NCBI GenBank assembly: GCA_964463555.1
Contig: CAYXCW010000132.1
Location: 1 to 20,989, forward strand
Direction: 5' to 3'
Origin: an uncultured bacterium
GTDB taxonomy: Bacteria; Cyanobacteriota; Cyanobacteriia; Cyanobacteriales; Aerosakkonemataceae
Length of the DNA: 20,989 nt
Shown one piece after another: positions 411-16,301 of this stretch (the stretch's first letter is position 1; each line of letters begins with the position of its first letter). The notes under the pieces were generated by a model that did not search any database, had not been told where the DNA came from, and worked only from the letters and a program-made list of their open reading frames with translations. The position numbers and the translations under genes were made by a program.

Positions 411-1892
<1,482 letters not shown>

Positions 1893-1894
1893 TA

Positions 1895-1978: not shown

Positions 1979-1995
1979 AAAGGACAGAAATTGAG

Positions 1996-2412
1996 ATGAC
2001 TTTAACCGTTCGCGTAATTGCTCCAGACAAAACTGTCTGGGATTCGAGTGCTGAAGAAATTATTTTGCCCAGCACGACGGGGCAACTCGGTATCCTCAGC
2101 GGTCACGCACCTTTGTTGACTGCTTTGGATATCGGCGTGATGCGCGTCCGCACTGGCAAGGATTGGTTTCCTATTGCCTTAATGGGCGGATTTGCGGAAG
2201 TGGAAAGCAACGAAGTGACCATTTTGGTCAATGGTGCCGAACGCAGCGATAAGATTAATCTGGACGCGGCGAGGGCTGAATATACTCAAGCTCAAGAACG
2301 TTACAACCAAGTTCAAGCTGGCGGTAACCGTCAAGAGCAAATTCAAGCAACGCAAGCTTTGAAGCGCGCCCGCGCCCGATTTCAAGCCGCTGGCGGCATG
2401 GTTCAAGTTTAA
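1996..2412 (+). CDS. atpC: F0F1 ATP synthase epsilon subunit. The ORF-track start at 1921 runs back through the heptamer repeat. The ATG at 1996 ([12 protein letters not shown]...) is the likely true start.
   Basis: N-terminal beta-sandwich motif [13 protein letters not shown]...[22 protein letters not shown], which is typical of epsilon subunits. The gene is immediately downstream of the beta subunit. AAGGA lies 11 nt upstream of the ATG. Confidence 0.92.
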
Positions 2413-2441
2413 AACTTATCAAATTTGGATTTGTACGAGTG

Positions 2442-2476
2442 GAGATGCGATTAGTCGCATCTCTATTTTTTTTATG
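2442..2476 (+). terminator. Rho-independent terminator of the atpD-atpC operon
   Basis: Perfect 9 bp stem GAGATGCGA-ttag-TCGCATCTC followed by tATTTTTTTTa. It lies 30 bp after the atpC stop codon. Confidence 0.8.
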
Positions 2477-2510
2477 AAGGGGTTTGCGATCGCTTATCGG
2501 TAACGTCAGC

Positions 2511-2739
2511 CGGGGCGGGTTTATTTAATCTTTGGGTAGCCTTCAAACATTTCTGGTAAAACCCGCCCCTACGATGCACAACCTTTCGGCTCGAAATTGA
2601 TATTAGATTAAAAACGCGATCGCATCTTTACAATCATAGGACTTACGCAGAGAAACCGGGTTTCTATGAAAAATCGTCGGTTTGGCAACGAAAGATCCAC
2701 GCAGAAACCCGGTTTCTAGGATCTTCGCGCGTAAGTCCT
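2511..2739. repeat. Copy A of a nested-palindrome repeat family. Inverted repeat GGGGCGGGTTT(2513-2523)...AAACCCGCCCC(2559-2569). A second inverted repeat AGGACTTACGC(2638-2648)...GCGTAAGTCCT(2729-2739) follows it. That second repeat encloses the palindromic pair AGAAACCGGGTTTCT(2651-2665)/AGAAACCCGGTTTCT(2703-2717).
   Basis: Seen directly. The same GGGGCGGGTTT and AGAAACCGGGTTTCT modules recur at 16136-16252 and 18374-18493. The 35 bp between the inner palindromes (ctatgaaaaatcgtcggtttggcaacgaaagatccacgc) aligns with the corresponding spacer of copy C. Confidence 0.6.
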
Positions 2740-2912
2740 AAATCAATCTAATTTCTCGCTTAAAACCGACAATTTTGACCACAAACTCGGTTGCTGGTGG
2801 AAGCGATCGCATACCAAATATTAAGAAATTCTGTAAATCAAAGAAAGTTTTAAGAACTCGGTCAACTCCAAACTGAATTGCTAGTGTAGATACACATTGC
2901 TCCCTTTGGGGG

Positions 2913-5033
2913 ATGAATTTTTTTATGAAAAGTTTCAAAAAAAGCCATAAACTACTGGGGCTGGCAGCCTCGGTATTCGCTTCGATGGCAGTCACTTCTT
3001 TTACCCCTGCCAATGCTGCATCCCGCAACGAGTATCAGATACCGGAAAAACACGTCGCACAACAAGTGCAACCTGCTTCCCCCGTGTCCTTGCCAACTAA
3101 CAACGCTCAAATTCAAACGATGCAAGTGGTAGAACCTTGGGCGCTGATTCCCATTGTTATAGTGGGCGGTATTGTTATATTTGTGCCGCTATTTTTTGGC
3201 GGACTTGTAGTAATTGGCGAACGGGAAGTCGGTATAGTTGTAAAGAAATTTGCGCTTTCCGGTCGCGGACTGCCTCCAGGGCGTTTAATTGCTTTAAATG
3301 GGGAAGCTGGCTATCAAGCGGATACCCTAGCACCGGGATGGCATTGGGGTTATTGGCCTTGGCAATATGCTGTCCGCAAAGAAAACGTTACCGTCATCCC
3401 GCAAGGGGAAATTGCCTTAGTTGTCGCCGCCGATGGTGCTTCGATTCCCCTAGAAAGAATTTTGGGCAAAGTAGTAGATTGCGATAATTTTCAAGATGCG
3501 CGGAAATTCCTCACGAATGGCGGGGAAAAAGGGCGACAATTGGGTATTCTAACTGCTGGAACTTACCGCATCAATACGGCTTTGTTCAAGGTGATTACAG
3601 CAGCTAATGCCAATCAGCATGGCATGAGGCCGGAACATTTGCACATTCATAGCATTTCACCCGATAGAGTCGGAATTATTACCACTTTAGACGGCATTCC
3701 GATTGATGAAGGCGAAATTGCAGGCGCAATTATTCCCGGTCACGATAACTTCCAAAACGGTCAAAAATTCATCAATGGCGGCGGACGCCGAGGTTTGCAA
3801 GAGCAGGTATTATTATCTGGTTCGTGGAACTTAAATCCTTGGTTTGTCCAAGTTGAACAAGTCCCGATGACGGAAATTCCCATCGGCTATGTAGGCGTGG
3901 TAATTTCTTTCGTGGGGACGGCATCGGAAGATATCAGCGGTGCGGCTTTTACTCACGGTCATTTAGTCGAAACTGGACACAAAGGTGTGTGGGTGGAACC
4001 GCTTTATCCAGGCAAACATCCGCTGAATACGCGCGTGATGAAAGTGGAATTGGTGCCGACGACTAATATTGTGTTGAACTTTACGGCGCGAATTACTGGC
4101 GGACACGGGTACGATACCAATTTAACGGCGTTGAAATTACTGTCATTTGATGGATTTAGCTTTGATTTGGAAGTATTTCAAGTCATCCACATCGGTTCGA
4201 TGGATGCGCCAAAGGTGATTTCCCGCTTGGGTTCGATGCAAAATGTTGTAGATCAAGTTTTGCGTCCAATTGTGGGAAATTATTTCCGCAATTCTGCTCA
4301 AGAATACACGATTCTGGATTTCTTAACTGCTCGCAGCGAACGACAAGCAGAAGCGGCAGAATATGTAAAAGCGGCGTTGCGTTCTTATGATGTACAAGCG
4401 GTGGATACTTTGATTGGTTTGATTACACCGCCGCCGGAATTAATGCACACGCTAACTGAACGCAAGTTAGCGGAAGAACAGCGCAAAACTTACGAAGTGC
4501 AGCAGATGGCGCAACAGCAACGCCAGTTACTGGTGCGGGAAACGGCGCTGGCAGATATTCAGCAAGAAATGGTCAAAGCTGAGCAAAATGTTAGTATCGC
4601 CGAACAGAAAGCGAATGCCAACATTAAGCAAGCGACGGGTGAGGCGGAGTCTACTAAGTTAAAAGCAATGGCGGAAGCGGATGCTATTCGCGCTACGGGG
4701 AATGCGAAGGCGGAAGCTTATCGCGCTGGTGTGGAGGCGTTGGGGGCGCAGGGTTACACTTCGATGCAGTTGATGCAAATTGTAGGCGATCGCAAGGTGC
4801 GCTTAATCCCCGATGTGTTGGTTAACGGTAACAATGGCGGTAATGGTTTGGTTGATGGTTTGCTCACCATGCTGTTGTGGAATCAATCTGAAAAATCCCA
4901 TAACGGCACCCCGCCGGAAGTGCCAAAAGTATCGGGTACGGATGCAATAGTTCCTTCCCTGGATAAACCTCCGGTAATTCCGGTTGAGATTCGACCTAAA
5001 CCAAACGGTCAACCTCCATCAAGTCGTCAATAA
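2913..5033 (+). CDS. Flotillin-like SPFH/band-7 family protein. It has an N-terminal signal peptide, one TM helix and a Pro-rich C-terminal tail.
   Basis: 706 aa. The N terminus is MNFFMKSFKKSHKLLGLAASVFASMAVTSFTPANAA, followed by the TM helix LIPIVIVGGIVIFVPLFFGGLVVI. An SPFH-like core begins at EREVGIVVKKF...LAPGWHW. The C-terminal Glu/Ala/Gln-rich heptad region (AEEQRKTYEVQQMAQQQRQLL...AEADAIRATGNAKAEAYRAGVEALGAQG) is characteristic of flotillins. Confidence 0.85.
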   Translation: MNFFMKSFKKSHKLLGLAASVFASMAVTSFTPANAASRNEYQIPEKHVAQQVQPASPVSLPTNNAQIQTMQVVEPWALIPIVIVGGIVIFVPLFFGGLVVIGEREVGIVVKKFALSGRGLPPGRLIALNGEAGYQADTLAPGWHWGYWPWQYAVRKENVTVIPQGEIALVVAADGASIPLERILGKVVDCDNFQDARKFLTNGGEKGRQLGILTAGTYRINTALFKVITAANANQHGMRPEHLHIHSISPDRVGIITTLDGIPIDEGEIAGAIIPGHDNFQNGQKFINGGGRRGLQEQVLLSGSWNLNPWFVQVEQVPMTEIPIGYVGVVISFVGTASEDISGAAFTHGHLVETGHKGVWVEPLYPGKHPLNTRVMKVELVPTTNIVLNFTARITGGHGYDTNLTALKLLSFDGFSFDLEVFQVIHIGSMDAPKVISRLGSMQNVVDQVLRPIVGNYFRNSAQEYTILDFLTARSERQAEAAEYVKAALRSYDVQAVDTLIGLITPPPELMHTLTERKLAEEQRKTYEVQQMAQQQRQLLVRETALADIQQEMVKAEQNVSIAEQKANANIKQATGEAESTKLKAMAEADAIRATGNAKAEAYRAGVEALGAQGYTSMQLMQIVGDRKVRLIPDVLVNGNNGGNGLVDGLLTMLLWNQSEKSHNGTPPEVPKVSGTDAIVPSLDKPPVIPVEIRPKPNGQPPSSRQ

Positions 5034-5088
5034 TCAAGGCAGAAACCAGCGTTTTTTGAACAATATCTTCGCCAATTATCTGCAACGC

Positions 5089-5199
5089 CTACACCCTAAA
5101 GGGTGTGGCTACATAAACGAAGCCTGCCTACGCAGGCTTAAATCAAAACCAGCCCGCCTTCGCGGGCTTTGTTTGTCAAGCGCGCACCCTTCAGGGTGC
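5089..5199. repeat. Cluster of four short GC-rich hairpins with overall mirror (inverted-repeat) symmetry. H1 5089-5108 is ACACCC-taaa-GGGTGT. H2 5121-5138 is GCCTGC-ctac-GCAGGC. H3 5151-5168 is AGCCCGC-cttc-GCGGGCT and is followed by tttgtttgt. H4 5184-5199 is GCACCCT-tc-AGGGTGC.
   Basis: Read directly. H1 resembles H4 and H2 resembles H3. The reverse complement of the right half aligns with the left half, including the inter-hairpin spacers. H3 plus its T-rich tail is a plausible terminator for the flotillin gene. Confidence 0.7.
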
Positions 5200-5248
5200 C
5201 GGATTGTGGCGAAGGTATGATTAAGCCCGTATCAATCGCTAATCACTA

Positions 5249-7204
5249 ATGGCTTTAAACAATCGTTACCGCATAATTGAATTAATTGCTCAAGGCGGAT
5301 TTAGCAAAACTTTCCTGGCTGTGGATGAGCTTAAATCGCCAGCTTTAAGTTGTGTCGTTAAACAATTTTTAGTTCAAAGTCAAGAAAAAAATATAACAAT
5401 CTTTGAAGAGGAAGCAAGGAAACTGAAGGAATTGGGGCAGCATCCGCAAATTCCGGCGCTGTTAGATTTTTTTGAGTCAGATGGATTTTTTTATTGGGTG
5501 CAAGAGTTTGTTGATGGGATGAATTTGGCTAAGGTGGTTGAGTTAGAAGGCGTTCTTAATGAGTCGCAGGTTTGGGATTTGTTGAATAATCTGTTACCTG
5601 TTTTGAAGTTTATTCACGATCGTGATGTTATTCATGGGGATATTAAACCAGCAAATATTCTTCGAGTTGGAAGCAAGGCGGAGCCTTGGGGAAGGCGTTC
5701 TCCGGGCTTACCGCCTGGGAACGAGAAGGTGGGGCAGTTTGTATTGGTCGGTTTTGGAAATGGTATGGGGAGTGCGGAATATGTCGCGCCGGAACAATTG
5801 CAGGGGAAGGCGGTTTTTGCTAGCGATCTTTATAGTTTGGGGGTAACTTGTTTTTATCTGTTGACTGGGGTTTCTCCGTTTAATTTATCGCCTGGGATAT
5901 GGACAGAATACTTGCAGGAGAAAATAAGCGATCGCTTCTCCCACATCCTCGATAAACTCCTACAAAATGACCCCAAGCAACGCTTTCAATCCGCAGATGA
6001 AGTTATGAGAATAATGGGGACAAAACCCCAAATCTCAAATCTCAAATCTCAACTCTCAAATTCCCTATGTTTGCAAACTCTCACCGGGCATGGGGGTTTA
6101 TTTTCGGGGGTGAATTCTGTTGCTATTAGTCCCGATAATCAAGTTTTAGCTAGCGGTAGCGATGATAAATCAATTCGCTTGTGGAATGTTGCGACGGGGG
6201 AAGTAATAGCCACTCTCGTCGGGCATACAGGCTTTGTTCAATCTGTTGCTTTTAGCCCGGATGGAGCTATTCTCGCTTCGGGTAGCGATGATAAAATGAT
6301 TAAACTCTGGGACTTACAAACTTATCAAGAAATTTGTACCTTATCCGAACATTCGCGCGCTGTTAAATCGGTGACATTCAGTCCGATCCCCCCCCAACCC
6401 CCCCTTGCCAAGGGGGGGCAGTTCGATCCCCCACTGGCTCAGGGGGGGCAGTTCGATCCCCCCCAACCCCCCCTTGCTAAGGGGGGGCAGTTCGATCCCC
6501 CACTGGCTCAGGGGGGGCAGTTCGATCCCCCCCAACCCCCCCTTGCTAAGGGGGGGCAGTTCGATCTCCCCAACCCTGCGGATCAAAAAAGCACCGTATC
6601 CGTTGGCTTCCCCCTTTTTAAGGGGGATGGGAGGGGGATCTTCGCTAGTGGGAGTTGGGATAAAACGATTAAATTATGGGATTTGAAGGCAAAAAAGGCC
6701 ATCTGCACGCTAACTGGACATCAATTGCAGGTGACTTGCGTAAGTTTTAGCCCTGATGGACGCTATCTTGCTAGTGCCAGTTTTGACAGAACTGTACGGT
6801 TGTGGGATTTGCAAAACTGGGAATTATTGACGCATCAAATTTTTAAAGGGCATTCTTGGCCTGTTTTTTCGGTGGCTTTTAGTCCCAAGGGGGATATTCT
6901 CGCCACGGGTAGCGGTGATAACACAATTAAATTGTGGGACTTAAAAACCGGGCAAGAAATTCGCACGATTTTGGGTCACTCTTGGTCTGTGGTGGCGATC
7001 GCTTTTTCTCCGGATGGGGAGACTTTGATTAGCGGCAGTTGGGATAAAACTGTCAAACTTTGGCAGGTTAGTACTGGCAAAGAAATTGATACCCTTGCTG
7101 GGCATTTAGACGCGGTTTCCACTGTTGCCGTTAGCCCTAACGGACAAATTATTGCCAGTGGCAGCAAGGATAAAACTATCAAATTGTGGCGGCGCGATGC
7201 TTAG
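5249..7204 (+). CDS. Ser/Thr-protein-kinase-like domain fused to a C-terminal WD40 beta-propeller. The kinase motifs are degenerate, so this is a predicted pseudokinase or atypical kinase.
   Basis: 651 aa. The kinase fold retains the G-loop AQGGFSKT, the Lys in VVKQF and the APE motif YVAPEQ. The catalytic loop is [10 protein letters not shown], not HRD. The position expected for DFG reads VGFGNG. About 25 aa are inserted between the catalytic loop and that position. At least 7 WD40 repeats follow, each ending in the WD40 consensus [15 protein letters not shown]. Confidence 0.9.
6385..6645. repeat. Intragenic, in-frame palindromic repeat array inside the WD40 gene. Alternating 39 bp and 30 bp units form a 69 bp (23 codon) period present about 2.5 times, followed by a degenerate CCCCC-tttttaa-GGGGG hairpin at 6611-6627. 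The 39 bp unit is gatc-C7-aa-C7-TTGCCAA-G7-cagttc. The 30 bp unit is gatc-C5-actggctca-G7-cagttc.
   Basis: Read directly. The array encodes [23 protein letters not shown] repeats. These sit in the loop between WD40 blades, between SVTFSP and [16 protein letters not shown]. The reading frame is preserved. Confidence 0.85.
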
Positions 7205-7518
7205 TTGCTGCCAGTAAATGCCACTTCTGGGAATTTAGATTGCGCTTCTGACATGGGGCGGCGCTTGCCTTCCTCTTGCCAGTAGTCAATCACTTCGGTG
7301 GCTTTATTGAGCATTTCGACGCGGTCGATATCGGAAATCCAGTGCTTGGACTCCAACTCACTTTTTAACTCTTCCCATGCATCATTTCGAGGCCAGAAAA
7401 AGTATTTGGTTAAAGGACTGGTTCCTTTACCTACTACTTGGTCAACCGCGATCGCAACATCCTTCTCTAGCCAGAGAACCTTTAAAATAAACTTCGACAA
7501 GCACACCTCCGGGTTCAT
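7201..7518 (-). CDS. Hypothetical small protein (105 aa). It is convergent with the WD40 gene, overlapping its stop by 4 bp, and divergent from the HAD gene.
   Basis: Non-repetitive ORF with a protein-like, mixed charged/hydrophobic composition. No recognisable motif and no clear SD sequence. Confidence 0.45.
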
Positions 7519-7595
7519 CCCAGATTCTTTACAACTCTACAACCTTATTATTATATCGTATCTATTGCCGGTTGATTAAAACGGGGAAGGCAGTA

Positions 7596-8357
7596 ATGAC
7601 TCCGATTGTGGTTTTTGATATTGATGGTGTCGTGCGCGATGTGGGAGGGTCTTATCGGAGAGCGATCGCAGATACGGTAGAATATTTTACCAATAATGCT
7701 TATCGTCCTACGGTGGAAGACCTCGACCGCCTTAAATCGGAAGGCATCTGGAATAATGATTGGGAAGCGTCGCAAGAGCTAGTTTATCGTTATTTTGAGG
7801 CGCAGGGACGGCAAAGAACGCACATTCCGCTCAATTATGACGACCTGGTTGCTTTTTTCCAATCGCGGTATCGCGGTGCAAATTGGGATGGTTATATCTG
7901 TTCCGAAGCGTTACTGTTGCAACCAAGTTATTTTGAACAACTCACGAATGCGGGAATTCGCTGGGGATTTTTTAGCGGCGCACCCCGCGAGGAAGCGATG
8001 TATGTTTTATCCCGACTCGGTTTAAACTCTCCCGTGTTAGTTGCAATGGAAGATGCACCGGGAAAACCCGATCCCACAGGTTTATTTGCCACTGTGCGTC
8101 AACTTGAGGAAGCGTCATCGGTAATTTACGTAGGTGACACGGTGGCGGATATGTACGTGGTGGAAAAGGCGCGTAACTTGCAAGACAACCGCACCTGGAT
8201 TGCTGTAGGAATTTTACCGCCCCACGTTCTGGAAACACCACTACGCCTGGATGCCTATACTGCTACTCTGCAACAAGCGGGTGCTGCTATAGTTTTGAAC
8301 AATGTGCAGGAATTGACGCCAGCGAAAATTTACGGATTGCTTGATATAGATTTATAG
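7596..8357 (+). CDS. HAD-superfamily hydrolase (phosphatase-like). The ORF track begins at a TTG at 7572. The ATG at 7596, preceded by GGGGAAGG, is preferred.
   Basis: N-terminal motif I VVFDIDGVVRD (DxDG[TV]). A C-terminal YVGDTVADM segment resembles the HAD motif III/IV Asp region. Confidence 0.7.
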   Translation: MTPIVVFDIDGVVRDVGGSYRRAIADTVEYFTNNAYRPTVEDLDRLKSEGIWNNDWEASQELVYRYFEAQGRQRTHIPLNYDDLVAFFQSRYRGANWDGYICSEALLLQPSYFEQLTNAGIRWGFFSGAPREEAMYVLSRLGLNSPVLVAMEDAPGKPDPTGLFATVRQLEEASSVIYVGDTVADMYVVEKARNLQDNRTWIAVGILPPHVLETPLRLDAYTATLQQAGAAIVLNNVQELTPAKIYGLLDIDL

Positions 8358-8380
8358 GTAGCGATCGCTCAAAAACCTGT

Positions 8381-8506
8381 GGAAAATACGGATATTTTTC
8401 TAGTTACCCCGTGTTTTTCCCTGGTAATATACAGTTCATTTGTTCGCGCATCCGTATTTTCCGCAATCAAAAAGCGCGCTCGATAAAACTTTGTTGATTT
8501 ATCGAG
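8381..8506. promoter_or_regulatory. Candidate operator/promoter region upstream of the large sensor-kinase gene. It holds a perfect 13 bp inverted repeat, GGAAAATACGGAT (8381-8393) / ATCCGTATTTTCC (8450-8462). It also holds a 9 bp inverted repeat, CTCGATAAA (8480-8488) / TTTATCGAG (8498-8506). A TATAAT lies at 8562-8567.
   Basis: Seen in sequence. The 316 bp intergenic region is AT-rich. No convincing -35 element was found, so a promoter role is inferred only. Confidence 0.3.
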
Positions 8507-8673
8507 ATAATTATACATATAATAAAACAGCAATATCAAAATCTCTATTTTGAGATAGCCGTATAATTTTAACTGATTTTAGTAAGTTTTTTATTGGCTA
8601 AGGGTGCAGGCTAAGCGAGAAAAATATCGATCCTAGAAAACTATTGCCCTGAAAGTGGTGTAGGTAAGGAAAT

Positions 8674-11600
8674 ATGGCAGATAATATTGCAATTGTGGCT
8701 GGATATGCCATCCTGAAAAAAATTCATCAAGGAAGCAGAACATTAGTTTATCGAGGAGTGCGCGATCGCGACCAAAAACCCGTCATTATAAAGCTACTTA
8801 AAAACGAATATCCTACCTTCAGCGAACTGGTACAATTTCGCAATCAGTATACAATTACCAAAAACCTGGACATACCAGGAATTGTGAAACCTTTAGCTTT
8901 AGAAAAATATGGCAATGGTTACGTGCTAGTGATGGAAGACTCTGGGGATGTTTCCCTATCAGATTATATGGCTAATTTGGGGGAAAACCAGTCAGATAAT
9001 AGCTTAGCGGTTGATAAATTTTTGCCTATAGGGATCGAGATTGCAAAAATCTTGTCAGGACTCTATACAGAGCGAATTATTCACAAAGATATTAAACCTA
9101 GTAATATTCTGATTAATCCAGAAACAAAGCAGGTAAAACTGATTGACTTCGGCATCGCCTCATTATTGCCTAAAGAAAACAGCGAAATTGCTAATCCCAA
9201 GGTTTTAGAAGGAACGTTAGCGTATATTTCTCCGGAACAAACCGGCAGGATGAATCGCTGTGTTGATTATCGCACGGACTTCTACTCGCTGGGGGTGACG
9301 TTCTACGAATTACTAACCGGACAACTGCCATTTAATGCTGCCGATGCGATGGAGTTAGTTCACTGTCATATAGCTAAAATTCCTCAATCGCCAATAGAGA
9401 TAAATTCAGCAATTCCTCAAGTGGTTTCTGATATTGTAATGAAATTAATGTCGAAAACCGCTGAATTGAGATATCAGAGTGCTTTTGGGCTGGGATATGA
9501 CCTGGAAATTTGCTGGAAAAATTGGCAAGAGAAGGGCAGAATTGACCGATTTATTTTAGGGGAGAGAGATGTATGCGATCGCTTCCTCATCCCTGAAAAA
9601 CTCTACGGCAGAGAAACCGAAGTCGCTACACTATTAAATGCCTTCGATCGAGTCAGCAATCCCCCCCTTGCCAAGGGGGGGATAGAAATCATGTTAGTGG
9701 CGGGATTTTCTGGCATTGGTAAAACTGCTGTAGTCAATGAAGTTCACAAACCGATTGTCCGCCAAAGTGGTTACTTCATCAAAGGGAAATTTGACCAATT
9801 CAAACGCGATATTCCCTTCTCGGCTTGGGTGCAAGCATTTCAGAATTTGATGCGGCAATTACTGACTGAAAGCGCTGCCGATGTGCAGAAATGGCGAGCC
9901 AAAATCTTAGAGGCTTTGGGTGAAAATGGTCAAGTCATTATTGATGTCATTCCCGAACTAGAACACCTGATTGGCAAGCAGCCAGAGGTTCCAGAATTAG
10001 AAGGAAATGCCGCCCAAAATCGCTTCAACTTACTGTTTGGTAAATTTATCCGATTGTTTGCCACAAAAGAGCATCCTTTAGCGATATTCTTGGATGACTT
10101 GCAGTGGGCAGATTCGGCTTCATTGAAGCTGATACAATTGTTGATGAGCGAGACGGATAGCAGCTATATATTATTAATCGGAGCATACCGGAATAACGAA
10201 GTTTTCGCTGCCCATCCCCTCATGCTAACCTTGGATGAGATTCGCAAACAGTCAGTAACAGTCAATCAAATTACTTTAGCACCCCTAGACCAACTTGCCC
10301 TAAATCGCCTGATTGCCGATACCCTGAGTTGTCCATTAGAAACAGCATTTCCTTTGACAGAACTGGTATTCGCTAAAACCAAAGGCAATCCTTTTTTTGC
10401 AACGCAATTCCTCAAGTCTCTGCATGAGGATGGGTTAATTTCATTTGATTTTAGTTGCGGGTATTGGCAGTGCGATATTGCTCAAGTCAGGGCGCTGGCA
10501 TTGACTGATGATGTAGTTGAATTTATGGCGATTCAGCTACAAAAATTGCCTCTAAATACGCAGGATGTTTTAAAGCTTGCAGCTTGTATAGGCAACTCTT
10601 TTGACTTGGCAACCCTAGCAATAGTTTATGAAAAATCTCAAGCAGAAACGGCGGCTGACTTATGGAAAGCATTGCAAGAAGGATTGGTAATTCCCCGCAC
10701 TGAAGTATACAAGTTCTTTCACGATTCTGAATCAGTTGAAGTTGTACCAGCATCTGATTTATCAGTTACATATAAATTTTTACATGACCGAGTACAACAA
10801 GCGGCATATTTTTTAATTCCCGAATCCCAGAAACAGTTAACTCATTTAAAAATTGGGCAACTGCTGTTAAACAACACCTCTCAAGCAGAAATAGAAGAGA
10901 AAATTTTTGATATTGCCAACCAATTGAATATCGGGGCGGAGTTAATTACCCATCAGAATGAGAAAGATGAACTAGCTCAATTAAATCTTATTGCTGGACG
11001 CAAAGCTAAAGCGTCTACAGCTTATGCAGCTGCTCTCAAATATTTGACTATAGGCGTACAAATTCTAGCTAATTCTAGTTGGCAAACCCACTATGAACTG
11101 ACATTATCACTGTATAATGAAGCCGCAGAAGTGGCATTTTTAAACGGCAACTTTCAGCAGATGGAGGAATGGACTGATATTGTCATCAAACAAGCCACAA
11201 TTATTCTAGACAAGGTGAAAGTTTATCAAGTCAAAATTCAAGCTTGTATGGCACTCAACCAGCAACTTGAAGCCGTTAATATCGCCTTACCAATTCTGAA
11301 ATTATTGGGGGTGGAGTTTCCTCAAAAACCCAGCGATTCAGATGTTCAGCTAGCACTGGAGGAAACCAAGTCAAATTTGAGTGGCAAGCGAATTGAAGGC
11401 TTAATTGACTTGCCTCAAATGACAAACCCTGAGAAGCTAGCAGCGATGAAAATTCTAGCGAGTGTATTTTCTGCTGCGTTTCAAGCTATTCCAGAAATGT
11501 TTCCCCTGATTGTGTGCAAACAGGTTAATTTATCCCTTGAATATGGGAATGATTCGGGATCGGCTTTTGCTTATGCTACCTACGCATTAATTCTCTGTGG

Positions 11601-14289
11601 AATTGTGGGAGATATTGAATCTGGCTATCAAGTTGGTAAACTGGCTCTAGGTCTGCTAAACCGGGCAAATGCTAAAGAAGTTAAAACTAGAACGATGCAA
11701 ATAGTTTATAGCTTCGTCATCCATTGGCAAGAGCATCTTAATCAAACAATACAACCTTTACAAGCAGCTTATCAACATGGATTGGAAATTGGAGATGTAG
11801 AATATGCTGCCTATTGTGGAGCAGTTTACTGTCTCCATGCCTTTTTTATTGGTAAAGAACTTAGTATTTTAGAGCAAGAGATGGTAACTTACAGTGAAGC
11901 GATCGCTCACCTCAAGCAAGAAACAGCATTAAATTATCATCAAGTTTATCAACAGTTTGTAGAAAATTTATTAGGTAATTGCGTTAATCCCTGCCAGTTG
12001 ATTGGTGAGAGTTACAACGAAGATAAGATGCTGCCACTGCATCTAAAACTCAAGGATAAAACAGCAATTTCTTATTTATATTTTAACAAAAGTCTTCTTT
12101 GTTATTTGTTTGGGGAGTTAGAGGAGGCTGCTAAATTTATCGCCCTAGCCGAACAGTATTTAAATGGATTAACTGCAACCATCAATATTCCTTTGTTTTA
12201 CTTTTACGATTCTATAATCAAGTTTGCTGTATACAAAAATAATTCAAAAACTGAGCAAAATGATATTCTTAATAAGGTAAAAAACAATCAGGATAAAATT
12301 AAAAAATGGGCAGATTATAGTCCGAACAATTATTTACATAAATTTTATTTAGTTGCAGCGGAAAAGCATCGGATTCTAGGGGAAACTATTGAGGCTATAG
12401 AATGTTACGATCGTGCAATTCAACTCGCGCAAGAAAACAAATTTATTAACGAAGAAGCATTAGCTCACGAACTTGCGGCTAAATTCTATCTTTCCTGGGG
12501 TAAAGAAAAGATTGCCCAAGTCTATTTAACTGATGCTTACTATGCCTATGCTCGTTGGGGTGCTAAAGCTAAAGTTGAAGATTTAGAAAAGCGGTATCCC
12601 CAATTACTCGCTCCGATTCTGAACCAGAAAAATCACCTAAATCCAAACGAAACAATTACCCAAATGTCGAGCGGAACGATCGCATCCACCAGTTCAGATG
12701 TATCAAACATTCTGGACTTAGCGACGGTGATTAAAGCTTCGCAATCGCTTTCAGGGGAAATCGATCTCAATCGGTTGCTTTCAACATTGATGCAAGTGAC
12801 GATCGAGAATGCCGGAGCGAATAAAGGCGCTTTGATTTGGGTAGAGGGAGATGCATTAACGATCGCAGCTCAATGTGCGATCGCTCAAGGCTGCCACCTA
12901 CAGTCTACTCCGATTGATAGCTCTCAAGATATTCCCATTACCCCGATCAATTATGTGTGGCGCACAGGGGAAACTTTAGTCATTAATGATGCTACTACTG
13001 AAACAACCTTTGCTGCCGATCCCTACATTATTCAACAGCAACCTAAATCGATTTTGTGCTTGCCAATTCAACACCAAGGAAAAGCGATCGCTCTGCTTTA
13101 TCTAGAAAACAATCTAATTACCGGAGCCTTTACCCCCGCCAGATTGGAACTTTTAAAAGTCCTATCTGCCCAAGCAGCAATATCGCTATCTAACGCACAA
13201 CTGTACGCCCAACTTAAGAAAAGCGAGAATTTACTAGCAGAATACAATCGCACTTTAGAACAACAAGTTGCCGAACGAACTCAAGAACTATCCCAAGCTC
13301 TGGAACAACTCAAAAATACCCAAGACGAACTGATTCAATCGGAAAAAATGGCAGCTTTGGGACAACTCGTGGCTGGTGTTGCTCACGAAGTAAATACACC
13401 CTTGGGAGCCATTACATCCTCAATTAAAAATATTGACAATTTTTGGAAAGATCGTTTAGATAACTTAACAGTAATTTCCCAAGAACTCTCTTCAGAAATT
13501 AAACCTTATTTTTTAGCATTGGTGCAAAAATCTAGCGAACAAAATCAAACTTTATCTACGCGAGAACAACGGCAAATTAAAAAAGCTTTAGCCGAACAGC
13601 TTAAAGCGCACCAAGTCGGAAATGAAACAGCGATCGCTAATACGTTATTAAATATTGGCATCTATGATAATGTAGAAAGCTTTCTGCCTCTGTTAAACCA
13701 CCCAGATAGCCAAAAAATTCTACAAATGGTCAACCAAATAGCCAACGTACAAATTAGCACTAAAACTATTATTACAGCTGCCGAACGAGCTGCTAAAGTA
13801 GTGTTTGCTCTGAAAACTTACGCTCGCTACGATAGCATGGGAGAAAAAGTCAGAGCCAATCTTATTACTGGGATTGAAACTATCTTAACTCTCTACCAAA
13901 ACCAAACTAAGCACGGTGTAGAGATTATCCGCAACTTTGACTATTCTATACCAGATATTTCCTGCTATTTTGACGAACTCAATCAAGTCTGGACAAATTT
14001 AATTCACAATGCCTTGCAAGCAATGGATTACAAAGGTAAATTAACGATTGATGCGACTAAGCAAGAAAATCAAATTCACATCGCCATTACCGATAGCGGT
14101 ACGGGGATTCCTCCAGAAATTATGCCCAAAATATTTCAGCCTTTCTTTACGACTAAACCTGCTGGGGAAGGCAGCGGTTTGGGTTTAGACATTGTCCGGA
14201 AGATTGTTGAGAAACATGGGGGCAAAATCTCCGTGGAGTCTGTACCGGGTAAAACTACGTTTACCGTATCTTTACCGATAAACAGCTAA
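8674..14289 (+). CDS. HstK-type multidomain sensor (1871 aa). N-terminal Ser/Thr kinase domain, then a P-loop NTPase (AAA/STAND-like), a long helical/TPR-like region, a GAF domain, and a histidine kinase (HisKA plus HATPase_c).
   Basis: Kinase: VIIKLLK, HKDIKPSNIL, KLIDFGIA, AYISPEQ. NTPase: Walker A GFSGIGKT and Walker B IFLDDLQWAD. GAF-like segment around aa 1345-1500 (...LYLENNL...). H-box: VAGVAHEVNTPLGAI. HATPase G-boxes: DSGTGIPPEIMPKIFQPFFTTK and GSGLGLDIV. SD-like taaGGAAat lies before the ATG. Confidence 0.93.
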   Translation: MADNIAIVAGYAILKKIHQGSRTLVYRGVRDRDQKPVIIKLLKNEYPTFSELVQFRNQYTITKNLDIPGIVKPLALEKYGNGYVLVMEDSGDVSLSDYMANLGENQSDNSLAVDKFLPIGIEIAKILSGLYTERIIHKDIKPSNILINPETKQVKLIDFGIASLLPKENSEIANPKVLEGTLAYISPEQTGRMNRCVDYRTDFYSLGVTFYELLTGQLPFNAADAMELVHCHIAKIPQSPIEINSAIPQVVSDIVMKLMSKTAELRYQSAFGLGYDLEICWKNWQEKGRIDRFILGERDVCDRFLIPEKLYGRETEVATLLNAFDRVSNPPLAKGGIEIMLVAGFSGIGKTAVVNEVHKPIVRQSGYFIKGKFDQFKRDIPFSAWVQAFQNLMRQLLTESAADVQKWRAKILEALGENGQVIIDVIPELEHLIGKQPEVPELEGNAAQNRFNLLFGKFIRLFATKEHPLAIFLDDLQWADSASLKLIQLLMSETDSSYILLIGAYRNNEVFAAHPLMLTLDEIRKQSVTVNQITLAPLDQLALNRLIADTLSCPLETAFPLTELVFAKTKGNPFFATQFLKSLHEDGLISFDFSCGYWQCDIAQVRALALTDDVVEFMAIQLQKLPLNTQDVLKLAACIGNSFDLATLAIVYEKSQAETAADLWKALQEGLVIPRTEVYKFFHDSESVEVVPASDLSVTYKFLHDRVQQAAYFLIPESQKQLTHLKIGQLLLNNTSQAEIEEKIFDIANQLNIGAELITHQNEKDELAQLNLIAGRKAKASTAYAAALKYLTIGVQILANSSWQTHYELTLSLYNEAAEVAFLNGNFQQMEEWTDIVIKQATIILDKVKVYQVKIQACMALNQQLEAVNIALPILKLLGVEFPQKPSDSDVQLALEETKSNLSGKRIEGLIDLPQMTNPEKLAAMKILASVFSAAFQAIPEMFPLIVCKQVNLSLEYGNDSGSAFAYATYALILCGIVGDIESGYQVGKLALGLLNRANAKEVKTRTMQIVYSFVIHWQEHLNQTIQPLQAAYQHGLEIGDVEYAAYCGAVYCLHAFFIGKELSILEQEMVTYSEAIAHLKQETALNYHQVYQQFVENLLGNCVNPCQLIGESYNEDKMLPLHLKLKDKTAISYLYFNKSLLCYLFGELEEAAKFIALAEQYLNGLTATINIPLFYFYDSIIKFAVYKNNSKTEQNDILNKVKNNQDKIKKWADYSPNNYLHKFYLVAAEKHRILGETIEAIECYDRAIQLAQENKFINEEALAHELAAKFYLSWGKEKIAQVYLTDAYYAYARWGAKAKVEDLEKRYPQLLAPILNQKNHLNPNETITQMSSGTIASTSSDVSNILDLATVIKASQSLSGEIDLNRLLSTLMQVTIENAGANKGALIWVEGDALTIAAQCAIAQGCHLQSTPIDSSQDIPITPINYVWRTGETLVINDATTETTFAADPYIIQQQPKSILCLPIQHQGKAIALLYLENNLITGAFTPARLELLKVLSAQAAISLSNAQLYAQLKKSENLLAEYNRTLEQQVAERTQELSQALEQLKNTQDELIQSEKMAALGQLVAGVAHEVNTPLGAITSSIKNIDNFWKDRLDNLTVISQELSSEIKPYFLALVQKSSEQNQTLSTREQRQIKKALAEQLKAHQVGNETAIANTLLNIGIYDNVESFLPLLNHPDSQKILQMVNQIANVQISTKTIITAAERAAKVVFALKTYARYDSMGEKVRANLITGIETILTLYQNQTKHGVEIIRNFDYSIPDISCYFDELNQVWTNLIHNALQAMDYKGKLTIDATKQENQIHIAITDSGTGIPPEIMPKIFQPFFTTKPAGEGSGLGLDIVRKIVEKHGGKISVESVPGKTTFTVSLPINS
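9661..9681. repeat. Single copy of the 21 bp hairpin element CCCCCCC-TTGCCAA-GGGGGGG, inserted in frame in the sensor-kinase gene. It encodes PPLAKGG between the kinase domain and the Walker A motif.
   Basis: It is identical to the core of the 39 bp unit of the 6385-6645 array, 3.3 kb upstream in a different gene. The flanking residues (DRVSN..IEIMLVAGFSGIGKT) fit the usual linker of this protein family. Confidence 0.8.
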
Positions 14290-14320
14290 AAACCCAACAA
14301 TAAAGTGAGGAGTTTAAAAT

Positions 14321-14716
14321 ATGTCAGAAGCAGTAATTTTATGCGTCGATGATGAAGCAATAGTTCTCAAAAGTTTGTCGATAGAGCTGCAAAATGCATT
14401 TGAGGATAGCTATATTTATGAATTTGCCGAAAGCCCAGATGAAGCATTAGAAATAATTGAGGAATTCCATGAAGATAAAATTCGCATTCTTTTAATCGTC
14501 TCAGATTGGCTGATGCCAGGAATGAAAGGAGATGAATTTTTAATCCGCGTACATGAAAGATATCCAAATATTGTCAAAATTATGCTAACGGGACAAGCTG
14601 ATGAAGCAGCAGTAGAACGTGCCAAAAAAGACGCCAATCTTTATCAATGCTTGCGAAAACCTTGGAAGTCTCAAGAATTAATTGAAACGATTCGTTCTGC
14701 TTTAGCAAAATTATGA
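14321..14716 (+). CDS. Stand-alone response-regulator receiver (CheY-like REC) protein
   Basis: 131 aa. Acidic pocket VDDE, phospho-acceptor Asp in LIVSDWLMPGMKG, Thr in KIMLTGQAD, Lys in LRKPW. Strong SD GTGAGGAG lies 8 nt before the ATG. Confidence 0.92.
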   Translation: MSEAVILCVDDEAIVLKSLSIELQNAFEDSYIYEFAESPDEALEIIEEFHEDKIRILLIVSDWLMPGMKGDEFLIRVHERYPNIVKIMLTGQADEAAVERAKKDANLYQCLRKPWKSQELIETIRSALAKL

Positions 14717-16020
14717 ATCAAGTTGCCATTACAATTATCTGCGTCGATGACGATCTAACTGTTTTAAACAGTCTGAAAATAGAGCTAGAAAACAATTTTG
14801 GCGAACAATACGTCATCGAATTGGCTCAAGATGGGGAAGAAGCTTTAGAGATATTCGCCGAATTAATGGATAATGGGTACGAAATCCCCATAGTAATTTC
14901 CGACTATATTATGCCAGGGATGAAAGGGGATGAGTTACTTCGATGCATTCATGCTATTTCCCCTAAAACGCTCAAAATTATGCTGACTGGACAAGCAGAT
15001 ATAGAAGCGATGGGTAATGCGATTAATTATGCTAATTTGTATCGCTTTATTACTAAGCCTTGGCACGATAAAGATTTAGTTTTAACGGTGAAAGAAGCTA
15101 TTAATAGCTATTTTAACGAGAAAGCATTGGCAGATAAAACCACCAAGCTTTTAAAAATCAATCGCGAATTAGAGCGATTAAATCAAGCTTTTTCTCGCTT
15201 TGTTCCCAAGCAATTTCTAAAATTATTGAATAAATCTAGTATTGTTGAAATTGAATTAGGCGACGCGGTGCAGCAAAATATGTCAATATTATTTGCTGAT
15301 ATTCGCGATTTTACCAAGCTCTCGGAAAAGATGACTCCCAATGAAAATTTTAAATTTATCAACTCTTATTTAAGTTGCATGGAACCAGCCATTATTGAAA
15401 ATGGTGGATTTATTGATAAATATATTGGCGATGCAATTATGGCGCTTTTTCCTGAGAGTGCCGACGATGCTCTGAAAGCGGCAATTGGTATGCTGACTGC
15501 CTTAAATGAGTACAATCAAGACCGTCAAACTATTGGCTATCCCTCAATTAGAATTGGCATTGGAATCAATACAGGTTTGCTGATGCTGGGAACTGTAGGC
15601 GGAAAAAGTCGCATGGATGGTACGGGGATTGGTGATGCGGTAAATTTGGCTTCTCGCGTCGAATCTCTAACTAAAGATTACGGGGTGTCGCTGTTAATTA
15701 CGCAACAAACTTTTGAACTATTGCAAGATCCAAATCGGTACGCACTGCGCCTAATTGACCGAGTCCAAGTTAAAGGGAAATCTGAATTGGTCACAGTTTA
15801 TGAAGTATTTGAAACCGATCTACCTACGATCAGAGAAGCAAAGTTAGCAAATAAGACAAAATTTGAAGAAGCCTGGTTACTTTATAATCAGGCTTCTTTT
15901 CCAGCAGCAGCAAAATTGTTTAGGCATTGCTTGTGCCAAAATCCGGGCGATCGCGTGGCGCAAATTTATCTCGAACGCTGTCAAAATAATTTTAACTATC
16001 ATCTAGATGAAGCTGTTTGA
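14713..16020 (+). CDS. Response-regulator receiver fused to a class III nucleotidyl (adenylate/guanylate) cyclase catalytic domain
   Basis: 435 aa. The N-terminal REC is paralogous to the preceding gene (VDDD, VISDYIMPGMKG, KIMLTGQAD, ITKPW). The cyclase motifs are FADIRDFT, YIGDAIMALF, IGIGINTG and GIGDAVNLASRVE. Its start overlaps the upstream stop in ATGA (14713-14716), consistent with translational coupling. Confidence 0.92.
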   Translation: MNQVAITIICVDDDLTVLNSLKIELENNFGEQYVIELAQDGEEALEIFAELMDNGYEIPIVISDYIMPGMKGDELLRCIHAISPKTLKIMLTGQADIEAMGNAINYANLYRFITKPWHDKDLVLTVKEAINSYFNEKALADKTTKLLKINRELERLNQAFSRFVPKQFLKLLNKSSIVEIELGDAVQQNMSILFADIRDFTKLSEKMTPNENFKFINSYLSCMEPAIIENGGFIDKYIGDAIMALFPESADDALKAAIGMLTALNEYNQDRQTIGYPSIRIGIGINTGLLMLGTVGGKSRMDGTGIGDAVNLASRVESLTKDYGVSLLITQQTFELLQDPNRYALRLIDRVQVKGKSELVTVYEVFETDLPTIREAKLANKTKFEEAWLLYNQASFPAAAKLFRHCLCQNPGDRVAQIYLERCQNNFNYHLDEAV

Positions 16021-16069: not shown

Positions 16070-16099
16070 CTCCTCCAGCAGCAATTAGCTATGATCGCT

Positions 16100-16296: not shown

Positions 16297-16301
16297 ACTC
16301 C

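Follow-up and report, generated by a model that had tools for sequence, protein, structure and literature searches.

A C7/G7 hairpin shared by two kinase genes of an uncultured cyanobacterium is the core of a dispersed, mostly intragenic repeat

How did two protein-coding genes of one uncultured cyanobacterium (Aerosakkonemataceae) come to carry the same 21-base hairpin in frame? The window, that is, the whole stretch of DNA analysed, comprises 20,989 nucleotides of contig CAYXCW010000132.1 (assembly GCA_964463555.1). An earlier description, made from its letters without database searches and called here the sequence-only reading, had noted one copy in a sensor-kinase gene and an amplified array in a WD40 gene. 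We followed up this description by computational analysis of the window and of matches in other genomes.

Results

The core CCCCCCCTTGCCAAGGGGGGG (C7-TTGCCAA-G7), a perfect palindrome of 21 bases, occurs exactly at 6398-6418 and 9661-9681, which confirms that one hairpin is present in frame in both genes. Copies with one mismatch (loop TTGCTAA) were found at 6467-6487 and 6536-6556, and at 9661 the palindrome is longer, 25 nt in all (AT-C7...G7-AT, 9659-9683). Counted on both strands, the exact and one-mismatch copies of the 21-mer gave 8 matches in the window against 0 in 100 dinucleotide-preserving shuffles, with a chance expectation of 0. Only one C or G run of at least 6 bases in the 21-kb window falls outside the two hairpin sites.

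The hosts had been described as unrelated genes. This stands for the insertion sites, which lie in non-homologous regions, but not for the genes as wholes, because each opens with a Ser/Thr kinase domain (Table 1). Homologues of host gene 1 are annotated as serine/threonine protein kinase with WD40 repeats, and its AlphaFold model contains a kinase domain and a beta-propeller. Disorder is predicted for the WD40 insert, with pLDDT below 50 between flanking blades above 95. At its insert, the host gene 2 ORF translates as ...RVSNPPLAKGGIEIMLVAGFSGIGKT..., and the kinase-AAA linker concerned varies in length among homologues. Both observations agree with the proposal that the inserts preserve the frame and occupy tolerant positions. 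The solo core of gene 2 folds as a DNA hairpin of -12.5 kcal/mol (z = -3.3).

Splitting the array at GATC bore out that every unit begins with these letters. GATC-bounded units span 6385-6562, and Tandem Repeats Finder, over 6379-6572, reported 2.8 copies with 96% matches and the 69-nt period given earlier. Two details had to be corrected: the first unit opens with C8, not C7, and the insert ends with its degenerate tail at 6640, not at 6645. The B-type hairpin was seen only at this locus, in the window and in two assemblies (L120 and L122) of the same region. The tail, whose DNA fold was -7.8 kcal/mol, includes a third hairpin (C5-TTTTTAA-G5, 6610-6626) and closes with the G-rich GGGAGGGGGATC; the right end of the insertion is the inverted counterpart of its left end (GATC8AAC7...).

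Table 1 Host genes, repeat units and related motifs in the window
Feature	Position	Strand	Length	Description	Evidence
Host gene 1	5249-7204	+	651 aa	Ser/Thr protein kinase-WD40 propeller fusion	ORF, translation, homologue annotation, AlphaFold
Unit A1	6385-6424	+	40 nt	GAT-C8-AA-[C7 TTGCCAA G7]-CAGTTC, exact core 6398-6418	
Unit B1	6425-6454	+	30 nt	GATCCCCCACTGGCTCAGGGGGGGCAGTTC, variant hairpin	
Unit A2	6455-6493	+	39 nt	core 6467-6487, loop TTGCTAA	
Unit B2	6494-6523	+	30 nt		
Unit A3	6524-6562	+	39 nt	core 6536-6556	
Degenerate tail	6563-6640	+		decayed unit start (GATCTCCCCAACCC), spacer, hairpin, then AT-GGGAGGGGG-ATC	inverted repeats I1-I3, I7; hairpin list
G-quadruplex-type motifs (three)	6388-6404, 6458-6473, 6527-6542	-		G7TTG7/8, template strand	sequence match only
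Host gene 2	8674-14289	+	1871 aa	Ser/Thr kinase - AAA_16 NTPase - repeats - GAF - histidine kinase	ORF, translation; Pfam families of identical gene in L120
Solo core	9659-9683	+		AT-[C7 TTGCCAA G7]-AT, encodes PPLAKGG, kinase-NTPase linker	

The array is the sole variable site among three otherwise identical 17-kb assemblies (L120, L121 and L122), with zero differences across the compared 6.4 kb to its left and about 10 kb to its right. It measured 264, 195 and 371 nt, respectively, and 255 nt in the window; these copy-number differences could be assembly artefacts, because the sources are short-read metagenome assemblies. Tychonema carries a comparable in-frame tandem array in its GcvP gene (L102), and Microseira BLCC-F43 does so in two of its genes (L025, L072).

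Both segments are insertions relative to orthologues, as the sequence-only reading had supposed. The WD40 site was without the segment in three relatives (P0003, P0004 and P0006), and in the closest orthologue lacking it (L125) TTCAGTCC runs directly into GGATGGTCAATTT, encoding FSPDGQFLAS. Microseira sp. BLCC-F43 has the identical left junction and one A unit. In gene 2, 79 of the 108 homologues show the standard 29-residue spacing (RVSxGxxE), and about 29 of the 108 bear extra peptides at the same point, many of the PL.KGG type; the linker DNA of a Nostoc homologue reads A-C6-TCAAT-C6-TTAGTAA-G6-ACATA-G6-T. Since decayed versions are present in relatives, both window sites look old, and no clean recent insertion was seen between near-identical genomes.

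The genome scan showed copies scattered across the genomes of filamentous cyanobacteria and of several other phyla. The matches listed place the exact core at more than 119 loci, from Cyanobacteria, Planctomycetota, Nitrospirota and other phyla; the scan demanded the exact 21-mer, and the locus count is a lower bound. Loop diversity, per-genome copy numbers and taxonomic proportions are not representative, because only listed matches to the exact 21-mer entered. Many of the non-cyanobacterial matches come from MAGs, and for a few of the bins (Enterobacteriaceae, Alcaligenaceae) the binning may be wrong. Many independent isolates also have the core, as do the complete chromosomes CP181291.1 (Microcoleus) and CP089923.1 (Nodosilinea), and different Microcoleus species share it at orthologous positions (L018, L061, L111). 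Near-identical stretches of ~45 nt are shared by Gemmataceae (L034) and Microcoleus (L051, L064).

Comparison of these copies identifies the 21-mer as the core of a larger element, A-C7/8-NN-[C7 TT NNN AA G7]-(NN-G7/8-T or AGAAAGAG-like tail). By the same comparison, the consensus is C7-TT-NNN-AA-G7, usually extended on one side as A-C7/8-NN-core, or core-NN-G7/8-T on the other strand; the opposite side often has a weak purine-rich AGAAAGAG-like tail after the hairpin, and some halves face each other across a short spacer as an inverted pair. Half elements made up 129 of 150 copies among the matches listed, with 14 full elements and 7 cores only. In 147 of 157 cases an A lies just outside the outer run, and the spacer is mainly AA or AG, again among the matches listed. 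The sequence-only reading had missed the longer conserved element, its range well beyond cyanobacteria and its mainly intragenic placement.

Most copies are situated within real protein-coding genes, where they occupy loops and the linkers between domains, run in either orientation and in whichever frame is free of stops, and are read through as short Pro/Gly-rich peptides. Among the matches listed, 85% of copies fell within ORFs of at least 250 codons, compared with 69% of random positions in the same loci (ORFs measured from stop to stop and not from gene calls, save eight checked with Pfam). All three frames and both orientations (61 vs 37) were used, and copies were always compatible with an intact ORF, likewise among the matches listed; copies also occur outside ORFs. 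The Pfam-confirmed hosts are UvrA, LepA, PepN, oxoprolinase, SoxA, GcvP, DnaX and a CoA-enzyme activase, with inserts between domains or at domain edges.

Discussion

These hairpins most probably form a family of very small GC-homopolymer repeats, selfish or neutral DNA that is tolerated in protein loops and has been amplified locally. Several known systems resemble it in part. Rickettsia palindromic elements (Ogata et al. 2000, listed in PMC3184786) also lie in frame in genes, including housekeeping genes, are translated as extra peptide segments where the fold tolerates them, and have no known transposase; but they are ~105-146 bp, AT-rich and confined to Rickettsia, whereas the elements here are 21-45 nt with C7/G7 homopolymers, form tandem arrays and are common to several phyla. 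REP/REPIN sequences, mobilised by RAYT transposases, are described as short (20-40 bp) GC-rich palindromes, often paired in inverted orientation with a short spacer between them; their movement is believed to involve single-stranded hairpins and to leave no target duplication (PMC3116915, PMC3733652). By these accounts they lie outside genes and are marked by a GTAG or CGTC tag, whereas the present elements are mostly intragenic and untagged. MITEs (Nezha and Microcystis MITEs, as presented in PMC3184786) are likewise non-autonomous, and the L...R pairs here (A-C8-NN-hairpin ... hairpin-NN-G8-T) are reminiscent of terminal inverted repeats enclosing a short body. The present elements are much smaller, however, with solo halves the commonest form among the matches listed, and no target-site duplication, transposase or parent element, such as an IS with matching ends, was identified for them.

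Membership in the small dispersed repeats (SDR) of Nostocales, especially the 21-nt SDR5 that inserts into HIP1, is possible but doubtful. SDR1-8 of Nostoc punctiforme, which we compared by description only, are reported as 21-27 nt, dispersed and possibly mobile (Elhai et al. 2008; PMC4390886, PMC5861425, PMC3116915). SDR5 is given as a 21-nt sequence (bioRxiv 10.64898/2026.06.24.733823) associated with GCGATCGC/GATC sites, inserting between nucleotides 3 and 4 of GCGATCGC (PMC4390886). The core here is likewise a palindrome of 21 nt that is dispersed, lies inside genes and occurs nested or in tandem. GATC bounds the window units, one unit (L124) has GAGCGATC before and ATCGTC after its C7...G7, L025 shows flanks ...AGCG-G6-GATCGC-C5..., and a related full element is present in a Nostoc sp. 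gene. However, the host is Microseira-like (Aerosakkonematales), not Nostocales, and these sources report SDRs only from Nostocaceae, whereas the present family occurs in Oscillatoriophycideae, Planctomycetota, Nitrospirota and others. Only 3 of 150 other copies listed have GATC flanks, 2 of them in Microseira; as a lineage signature, this argues for copying within a lineage. In 100 kb of the N. punctiforme plasmid pNPUN01 we found neither a C≥5-TT-NNN-AA-G≥5 hairpin nor a recurrent split-HIP1 insert.

Selection might instead have favoured the C7/C8/G7 tracts and the G7TTG7 quadruplex motifs of the template strand as a means of switching or modulating WD40-kinase expression, which we consider unlikely. 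As in homopolymer contingency loci, C/G tracts of 7-8 lie inside an ORF, with 11 runs of at least 7 in ~170 bp (6388-6556). The three array motifs were the only ones returned by a scan of both strands of the window with (G3+N1-7)x3G3+, and the array RNA fold was -145.8 kcal/mol (z = -4.4). The L122 allele is frameshifted at a C6 run, which gives a 517-aa product and a separate downstream ORF, and the shifted frame remains open through the array. The suggested hotspot of slippage and expansion finds support in the sole variable site and this one allele, but the evidence for phase variation comes from one short-read assembly. Among contingency loci, tracts of 7 bases stand near the bottom of the length range that gives frequent slippage. 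Moreover, the solo copy of gene 2 was invariant in all four assemblies compared, and the tracts belong to a dispersed repeat also present in uvrA, lepA, gcvP and dnaX, housekeeping genes that are implausible as contingency loci.

Convergence without mobility is improbable as well. Hairpins would then arise and be perfected locally and repeatedly where Pro-Pro/Gly-Gly is encoded, by homopolymer slippage and by template switching that corrects quasi-palindromes. In its favour, arrays clearly gain and lose length locally, the same linker bears such segments in many paralogous kinases, the palindromes at both window sites are perfect although the sites look old, and transposition machinery was not found. 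Against this stand the identical 21-mer, the outer A (147/157), the AA/AG spacers and the common tail at more than 119 listed loci in different genes and phyla, the occurrence of copies in all frames and both orientations and also outside ORFs, and the zero chance expectation of the 21-mer in the window.

It is very improbable that a Pro/Gly-rich flexible linker or binding motif (PPxPPLAKGG) was gained as a selected feature by two signalling proteins. Both hosts are signalling kinases with in-frame, stop-free segments, but across loci the DNA palindrome is the conserved part and the peptide read from it depends on frame and strand (PPLAKGG, PPLSKGG, PPLLRG, PPCQGG, PPWQGG and others); the WD40 insert is predicted disordered, the closest orthologues are without it, and a protein search with the insert segment returned no match. 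A poly-G/poly-C or chimeric-read artefact, suggested by array lengths that differ among short-read assemblies (the window and three sister contigs), is scarcely credible given the always ORF-compatible core in independent isolates, complete chromosomes and orthologous Microcoleus positions.

On the reading of a tolerated hairpin family, a hairpin that entered a WD40 blade turn long ago (native FSP followed by DGQF) would have been amplified locally into the GATC-bounded array, with a unit that probably takes in the native DGQF codons. Replication slippage or unequal recombination between repeated hairpins is the likely route, and would generate a length-variable, occasionally frame-shifted segment; recombination between two hairpins could collapse an element to a solo core, as in gene 2. 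Our working guess is that spread to new sites would proceed either by mobilisation in trans as a single-stranded hairpin or by copying through template switching or gene conversion. We infer that, like Rickettsia palindromic elements, the repeats persist where the protein tolerates them, as selfish or neutral DNA.

A dispersed hairpin in two genes of the window

The hairpin in the window belongs to a family of GC-homopolymer hairpin repeats that spans several phyla and lies mostly within genes, and the finding is more general than the sequence-only reading supposed. The core of the element is a perfect palindrome, C7-TTGCCAA-G7; the window holds four copies including variants, and dinucleotide-preserving shuffles of the window predict none. 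That the same 21-mer stands in frame in two genes was confirmed by two exact copies, both within long ORFs: in gene 1, whose array encodes 23-residue repeats, and in gene 2, where a solo core encodes PPLAKGG. Tandem Repeats Finder likewise recovered the 69-bp period claimed for the array, and cutting the block at GATC confirmed that every unit is GATC-bounded, the A units holding the core and the B units a variant hairpin seen at this locus only. Save for small corrections, the earlier observation was correct. The degenerate tail of the array closes with a third hairpin, C5-TTTTTAA-G5, followed by GGGAGGGGGATC, and the right end of the whole insert is the inverted image of its left end, GATC8AAC7. 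All but one of the C or G runs of at least 6 in the 21-kb window fall within the two hairpin sites, and C7, C8 and G7 tracts are present inside the array ORF. The solo copy gave a ssDNA fold of -12.5 kcal/mol (z = -3.3), other units being less distinct, and the array an RNA fold of -145.8 kcal/mol (z = -4.4) in which many other registers are possible. The window has just three canonical G-quadruplex motifs: the G7TTG7 tracts of the A units, on the template strand. No Rfam family reached its gathering score in the window, and the sub-threshold matches to the array were generic GC hairpins. The window also carries heptamer tandem arrays of a kind typical for filamentous cyanobacteria, one of which encodes a 13-residue peptide in the linker joining the two domains of gene 1.

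Positions of the hairpin copies, their host genes and other features in the window and the compared loci
Feature	Sequence	Position	Detail
Gene 1, Ser/Thr kinase-WD40 protein	window	5249-7204	long ORF; hosts array
Gene 2, kinase-AAA_16-GAF-histidine kinase	window	8674-14289	long ORF; hosts solo core
Exact core in array	window	6398-6418	CCCCCCCTTGCCAAGGGGGGG
Exact core, solo	window	9661-9681	CCCCCCCTTGCCAAGGGGGGG; no GATC flanks
Core copies with loop variant TTGCTAA	window	6467, 6536	
69-nt period	window	6379-6572	
Array units cut at GATC	window		A1 40 nt, B1 30, A2 39, B2 30, A3 39, then 78-nt degenerate tail
Kinase-domain segment of gene 1	window	5672-5731	residues 142-161
Heptamer tandem arrays	window	1889-1978, 6029-6061 (within gene 1), 16024-16069, 16303-16324, 18267-18331, 18548-18587	GTAATTG, CGATTAC, CAAATCT, TTGCTAA, ATTGGTA, CATTACC
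Kinase fragment	L123, Microseira wollei	13528-13971	147 aa
IS605-type OrfB/TnpB gene	L124, Microseira sp. BLCC-F43	6068-7340	between atpE and Band_7
Big kinase orthologue	L124, Microseira sp. BLCC-F43	13552-18695	called as three ORFs
In-frame array	L025, Microseira sp. BLCC-F43	2256-2360	interrupts gene with flanking peptide SLGFRGEALHSLAQ
In-frame array	L102, Tychonema sp. BBK16	~1100-1300	GcvP gene; 26-residue peptide, x7
CoA-enzyme-activase ORF	L116, Nitrospirae MAG CG1_02_44_142	1280-6028	1583 codons, one ORF
Prophage-like region	L134, IMG/VR contig 3300032160_001195	4070-11352	60% GC
Nested repeats	L035, Gomphosphaeria aponina MAG	2200-7100	
Plasmid region	L138-L139, N. punctiforme pNPUN01	1-100000	

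Filled and empty sites in related genomes

The best named relatives of the gene 1 kinase were those of Microseira wollei and Microseira sp. BLCC-F43, a genus placed in Oscillatoriophycideae, order Aerosakkonematales, not Nostocales. The window and both Microseira genomes share the gene order atpB-atpE, Band_7, kinase-WD40, ycf65, HAD hydrolase, big kinase. Orthologue alignment upheld the proposal that the gene 1 segment is an insertion: it is missing in the homologues P0003, P0004 (M. wollei) and P0006, where FSP runs directly into (D)G-x-LASGSWDK. The empty site of L125, the closest of the insert-free relatives, reads TTCAGTCC|GGATGGTCAATTTTTAGCT, encoding FSPDGQFLAS. Strain BLCC-F43 (L124) has the identical left junction, AGTCCGATC8AAC7, with one A unit and then unrelated sequence, and M. 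wollei retains only a G-rich remnant, GGGGCGAGGGGAGGATC, resembling the right end in the window. These states indicate that the site already held an insert in an ancestor of these lineages, and that the insert later decayed, shrank or expanded. Array units finish with GGGCAGTTC (G-Q-F) and begin with GAT (D), which is the native D-G-Q-F order; judged from these ends, the amplified unit would consist of about 27 inserted bases together with the DGQF codons of the native site. Beyond the palindrome itself, duplication was not visible at this one filled/empty comparison. An AlphaFold2 model of gene 1, built with a 94-sequence alignment, placed the insert between strands 372-377 and 464-469, with pLDDT <50 at about residues 388-459 (block means <60 over 381-460) and >95 in the adjacent blades. 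The insert is thus predicted to be a disordered loop in a blade turn of an otherwise intact propeller, bearing out the suggested position between WD40 blades.

A second insert-like segment lies in the kinase domain of gene 1. Its DNA, GGCGGAGCCTTGGGGAAGGCGTTCTCCGGGCTTACCGCCTGGGAACGAG, is an imperfect palindrome (GGCGG...CCGCC) encoding a 21-residue peptide with AlphaFold pLDDT <40; P0007, P0011 and P0026 lack it, and P0003-P0006 and P0009 have variant forms of it. The segment seems to belong to another family of small repeats, likewise tolerated in frame. In the neighbourhood of these genes, M. wollei has just a kinase fragment in place of the 1871-aa sensor kinase and two response-regulator genes of the window, a remnant which indicates that the whole module was deleted there; a PhdYeFM/PIN toxin-antitoxin pair stands directly upstream of its WD40 kinase. 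In BLCC-F43 an IS605-type gene has its place in the same gene order.

For gene 2, we compared the kinase-NTPase linker in 108 homologues with locatable flanking motifs. The standard 29-residue spacing (F[DE]RVSxGxxE[ILM]MLVA) is kept at the PPLAKGG point in 79 of them, in line with the segment being an insertion as claimed, and about 29 are longer at precisely the hairpin point. Many extra linker peptides are of a like kind (e.g. NPPQSPLSKGGHRGVE, TPLSSPLTKGGQRGVE and NPIPPQSPLKKGGGSE). The linker DNA of a Nostoc sp. homologue reads A-C6-TCAAT-C6-TTAGTAA-G6-ACATA-G6-T. That of BLCC-F43 holds a different double unit, GATC6TGC7TTGGCATTGGGGAGCGATC7TGCTAAG7ATC, which carries an in-frame stop TAA, and the first ORF break in its big kinase lies exactly at the hairpin site. 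Such a record could mean that the linker itself is repeatedly hit by insertions, or that insertions are frequent at all sites and persist only at those where the protein tolerates them; we favour the second reading, because the same pattern is found at other host genes.

Local amplification and apparent variation of the array

Three near-identical sister assemblies of the window (L120-L122, ENA contigs of one project) are identical to one another in the flanks compared, 6.4 kb on the left side of the array and about 10 kb on its right side, and all three differ from the window at the same 7 SNPs. The order of array units is AAABA (L120), AAA (L121) and AAA*AB'ABA (L122), versus ABABA in the window; with flanks identical and arrays differing, the array is the sole variable site among the three. 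In unit A*, C6 replaces C7, and the resulting frameshift yields a 517-aa product and a second ORF (L122, a short-read assembly). Because all four, the window included, are short-read assemblies, in which repeats of 39-69 nt can be mis-traversed, the evidence that array length really varies is suggestive. The window array is locally amplified and apparently unstable, and phase variation of gene 1 through it is possible.

In-frame arrays built on the same hairpin were found in the GcvP gene of Tychonema sp. BBK16, in a WD40/NACHT-type gene of Microcoleus (L049) and in two BLCC-F43 genes (L025, L072), where GATC bounds units 33 and 35 nt long. By eye, the peptide flanking the L025 array resembles MutL. 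By unequal recombination or slippage between its two hairpins, a hairpin-spacer-hairpin pair would either grow into an array or collapse to a single core. GATC flanks are rare elsewhere (3 of 150 copies among the matches listed); they mark a Microseira-lineage subfamily, which supports copying within the lineage.

A cross-phylum family of mainly intragenic hairpins

An exact scan with the query CCCCCCCTTGCYAAGGGGGGG, one genome per species, yielded at least 119 loci, so the dispersal that the sequence-only reading anticipated extends well past the window. Among the matches listed, classed by the titles of their records, about 75 are cyanobacterial (mostly Microcoleus, Tychonema and other Oscillatoriales, also Scytonema, Richelia, Gomphosphaeria and Nodosilinea), about 26 belong to Planctomycetota and about 13 to Nitrospirota, with single matches in Armatimonadota, in a CPR bacterium and in other groups; two of the sequences are complete chromosomes.

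The copies share more than the core. Among the matches listed, a second homopolymer run (A-C7/8-NN-core = core-NN-G7/8-T) stands on one side in 129 of 150 copies and on both sides in 14, leaving 7 bare cores like the solo copy in gene 2. In 147 of 157 cases an A lies just beyond the outer run, and the spacer between runs is mostly AA, AG, GG or TG. The runless side carries a weak AGAAAGAG-like tail. Loops vary and mainly fit TT-NNN-AA, with arms of 9 bp and a loop of 3 nt. Half elements often occur as inverted pairs with a 15-130 nt spacer, the layout of the entire WD40 insert. Microcoleus (L051, L064) and Gemmataceae (L034) share almost unchanged stretches of the type AC8AGC7TTGCCAAG7AGAAAGAGG, a resemblance that convergence can hardly explain.

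Among the matches listed, 85% of the copies away from locus edges lie within a frame open for at least 250 codons, compared with 69% of positions drawn at random from the same loci. Copies occur in each of the three frames and in either orientation, so that the peptide varies (PPLAKGG, PPLSKGG, PPLLRG, PPCQGG, PPWQGG) while the DNA is unchanged. Pfam confirmed eight hosts as true conserved genes (UvrA, LepA, aminopeptidase N, oxoprolinase, sarcosine oxidase alpha, GcvP, DnaX and CoA-enzyme activase), in which the inserts lie between domains or within a stretched domain match; given the intact ORFs, the segments are presumably translated. The Nitrospirae activase ORF (L116), with at least four separate element copies, is an extreme case of a single gene colonised several times; it also has repeated SPIHPFTHSPV-type segments.

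A viral scan found the generalised core in only 10 of 2.9 million contigs. One of these contigs (L134) has 10 copies of C7TT(CGC/GCG/TCG)AAG7, most followed by CAG-G7-TCGGGTGAA, and also encodes a large serine recombinase and a phage tail-tube protein, an adjacency that points to no mechanism. In the G. aponina MAG (L035), a larger repeat, whose ends are TAGACCTCTTGC(G/A)AAA, encloses the hairpin together with a degenerate relative, CCCCACCCCAACCCTCCCC-TTGGTAA-GGGGAGGG, and adjoins 19-nt tandem arrays that form 156-nt inverted repeats 3.8 kb apart. We rejected an IS flanked by hairpins here: other repeats are nested in this region, and no transposase was tied to the motif. When metagenomes were scanned for the 20-nt left flank, one unrelated chance match and nothing else came up. 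The 85-aa insert had no protein match at E <= 0.001, with composition filtering the probable cause; a 48-nt consensus had no blastn match among plasmids, since low-complexity filtering masks it; exact-sequence look-up of both window proteins gave no match, and a literature search for PPLAKGG or the hairpin strings found nothing relevant.

Comparison with known repeat families

We rate the family among the small dispersed palindromic repeats, or selfish DNA in genes. Its closest functional analogue is the Rickettsia palindromic elements, which likewise lie in frame within ORFs, with translation inferred from intact ORFs. Size, composition and distribution differ: those elements measure about 105-146 bp and belong to the Rickettsia lineage, whereas the hairpin element measures 21-45 nt and occurs in other phyla.

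The small dispersed repeats (SDRs) of cyanobacteria, reportedly 21-27 nt long, fit in part. The hairpin resembles them, as described second-hand, in its dispersed 21-nt core with at least 119 loci. SDR5 is given as 21 nt in a preprint (bioRxiv 10.64898/2026.06.24.733823), and another description has it inserting precisely between nucleotides 3 and 4 of HIP1, GCGATCGC (PMC4390886). For comparison, the hairpin flanks read GAGCGATC|C7..G7|ATCGTC in L124 and a split GCG...ATCGC in L025, and all units of the window array are GATC-bounded, but the solo core and 147 of 150 copies elsewhere have no GATC flanks. Length and GATC association agree with these second-hand accounts, but the taxon does not: one report confines SDRs to Nostocaceae or heterocystous cyanobacteria and finds no SDR-like repeat outside Nostocaceae (PMC5861425), whereas the host's relatives are Microseira and further matches lie in Planctomycetota, Nitrospirota and other phyla. 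A stretch of 100 kb of N. punctiforme pNPUN01 contained no C>=5TTNNNAAG>=5 hairpin. The top repeated 16-mers of that plasmid are GACTCCT heptamer runs broken by a GAATTC-centred palindrome, CCTGACTCCTGAATTCAGGAGTCAGG, and may represent one of the published SDR families.

REP/REPIN-RAYT elements share the short GC-rich palindrome (here 9-bp arms and a 3-nt loop) and the inverted L...R pairs seen in many loci. Membership fails on location, REPs being extragenic and 85% of hairpin copies lying in ORFs of at least 250 codons with Pfam-confirmed hosts, and on the conserved GTAG or CGTC tag that REPs carry at one end (PMC3733652), in place of which the hairpin has A-C7/8 on one side and the AGAAAGAG-like tail on the other. 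In the loci, moreover, no RAYT gene was seen. Inverted half elements flanking spacers resemble terminal inverted repeats; MITE membership would further call for a target duplication and a parent IS with matching ends, and neither was found, the IS having been sought in the 8-kb loci. A Tn3-family link was dropped because the flanks differ between loci, although GGGGTCTGACGC beside some planctomycete copies resembles Tn3 ends, and a tRNA T-arm resemblance of G7CAGTTCGATC7 because the stem is unpaired.

Possible mobility and significance

The element of about 45 nt is nearly base-for-base common to Cyanobacteria, Planctomycetota and Nitrospirota. It is conceivable, if on our own estimate rather doubtful, that A-C7/8-NN-C7TTNNNAAG7-(AGAAAGAG or NN-G7/8-T) is mobile, horizontally transmitted and copied in trans, colonising coding sequence at least as readily as intergenic DNA. 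Such copying could be performed by a trans-acting system, such as an HUH enzyme that recognises hairpins, or a system on broad-host-range elements that works by template switching or retro-copying. If this held, the element would be among the smallest mobile sequences known, and bacterial proteins would widely owe to it disordered loops and arrays of variable length, a source not described before.

In practice, the arrays break short-read assemblies and gene calls, as in the split or frameshifted ORFs of L122 and L124. If the family is as it appears, a hairpin of a few dozen bases remodels proteins in several phyla, including core enzymes such as UvrA, LepA, GcvP and DnaX, entering in frame, being tolerated as a disordered loop, and then being able to expand into variable tandem arrays. 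This would widen the Rickettsia phenomenon of selfish DNA in genes to free-living bacteria and challenge the published view that SDR-like repeats are limited to Nostocaceae, and the conserved 45-nt sequence would offer a tractable case for how very small repeats copy.
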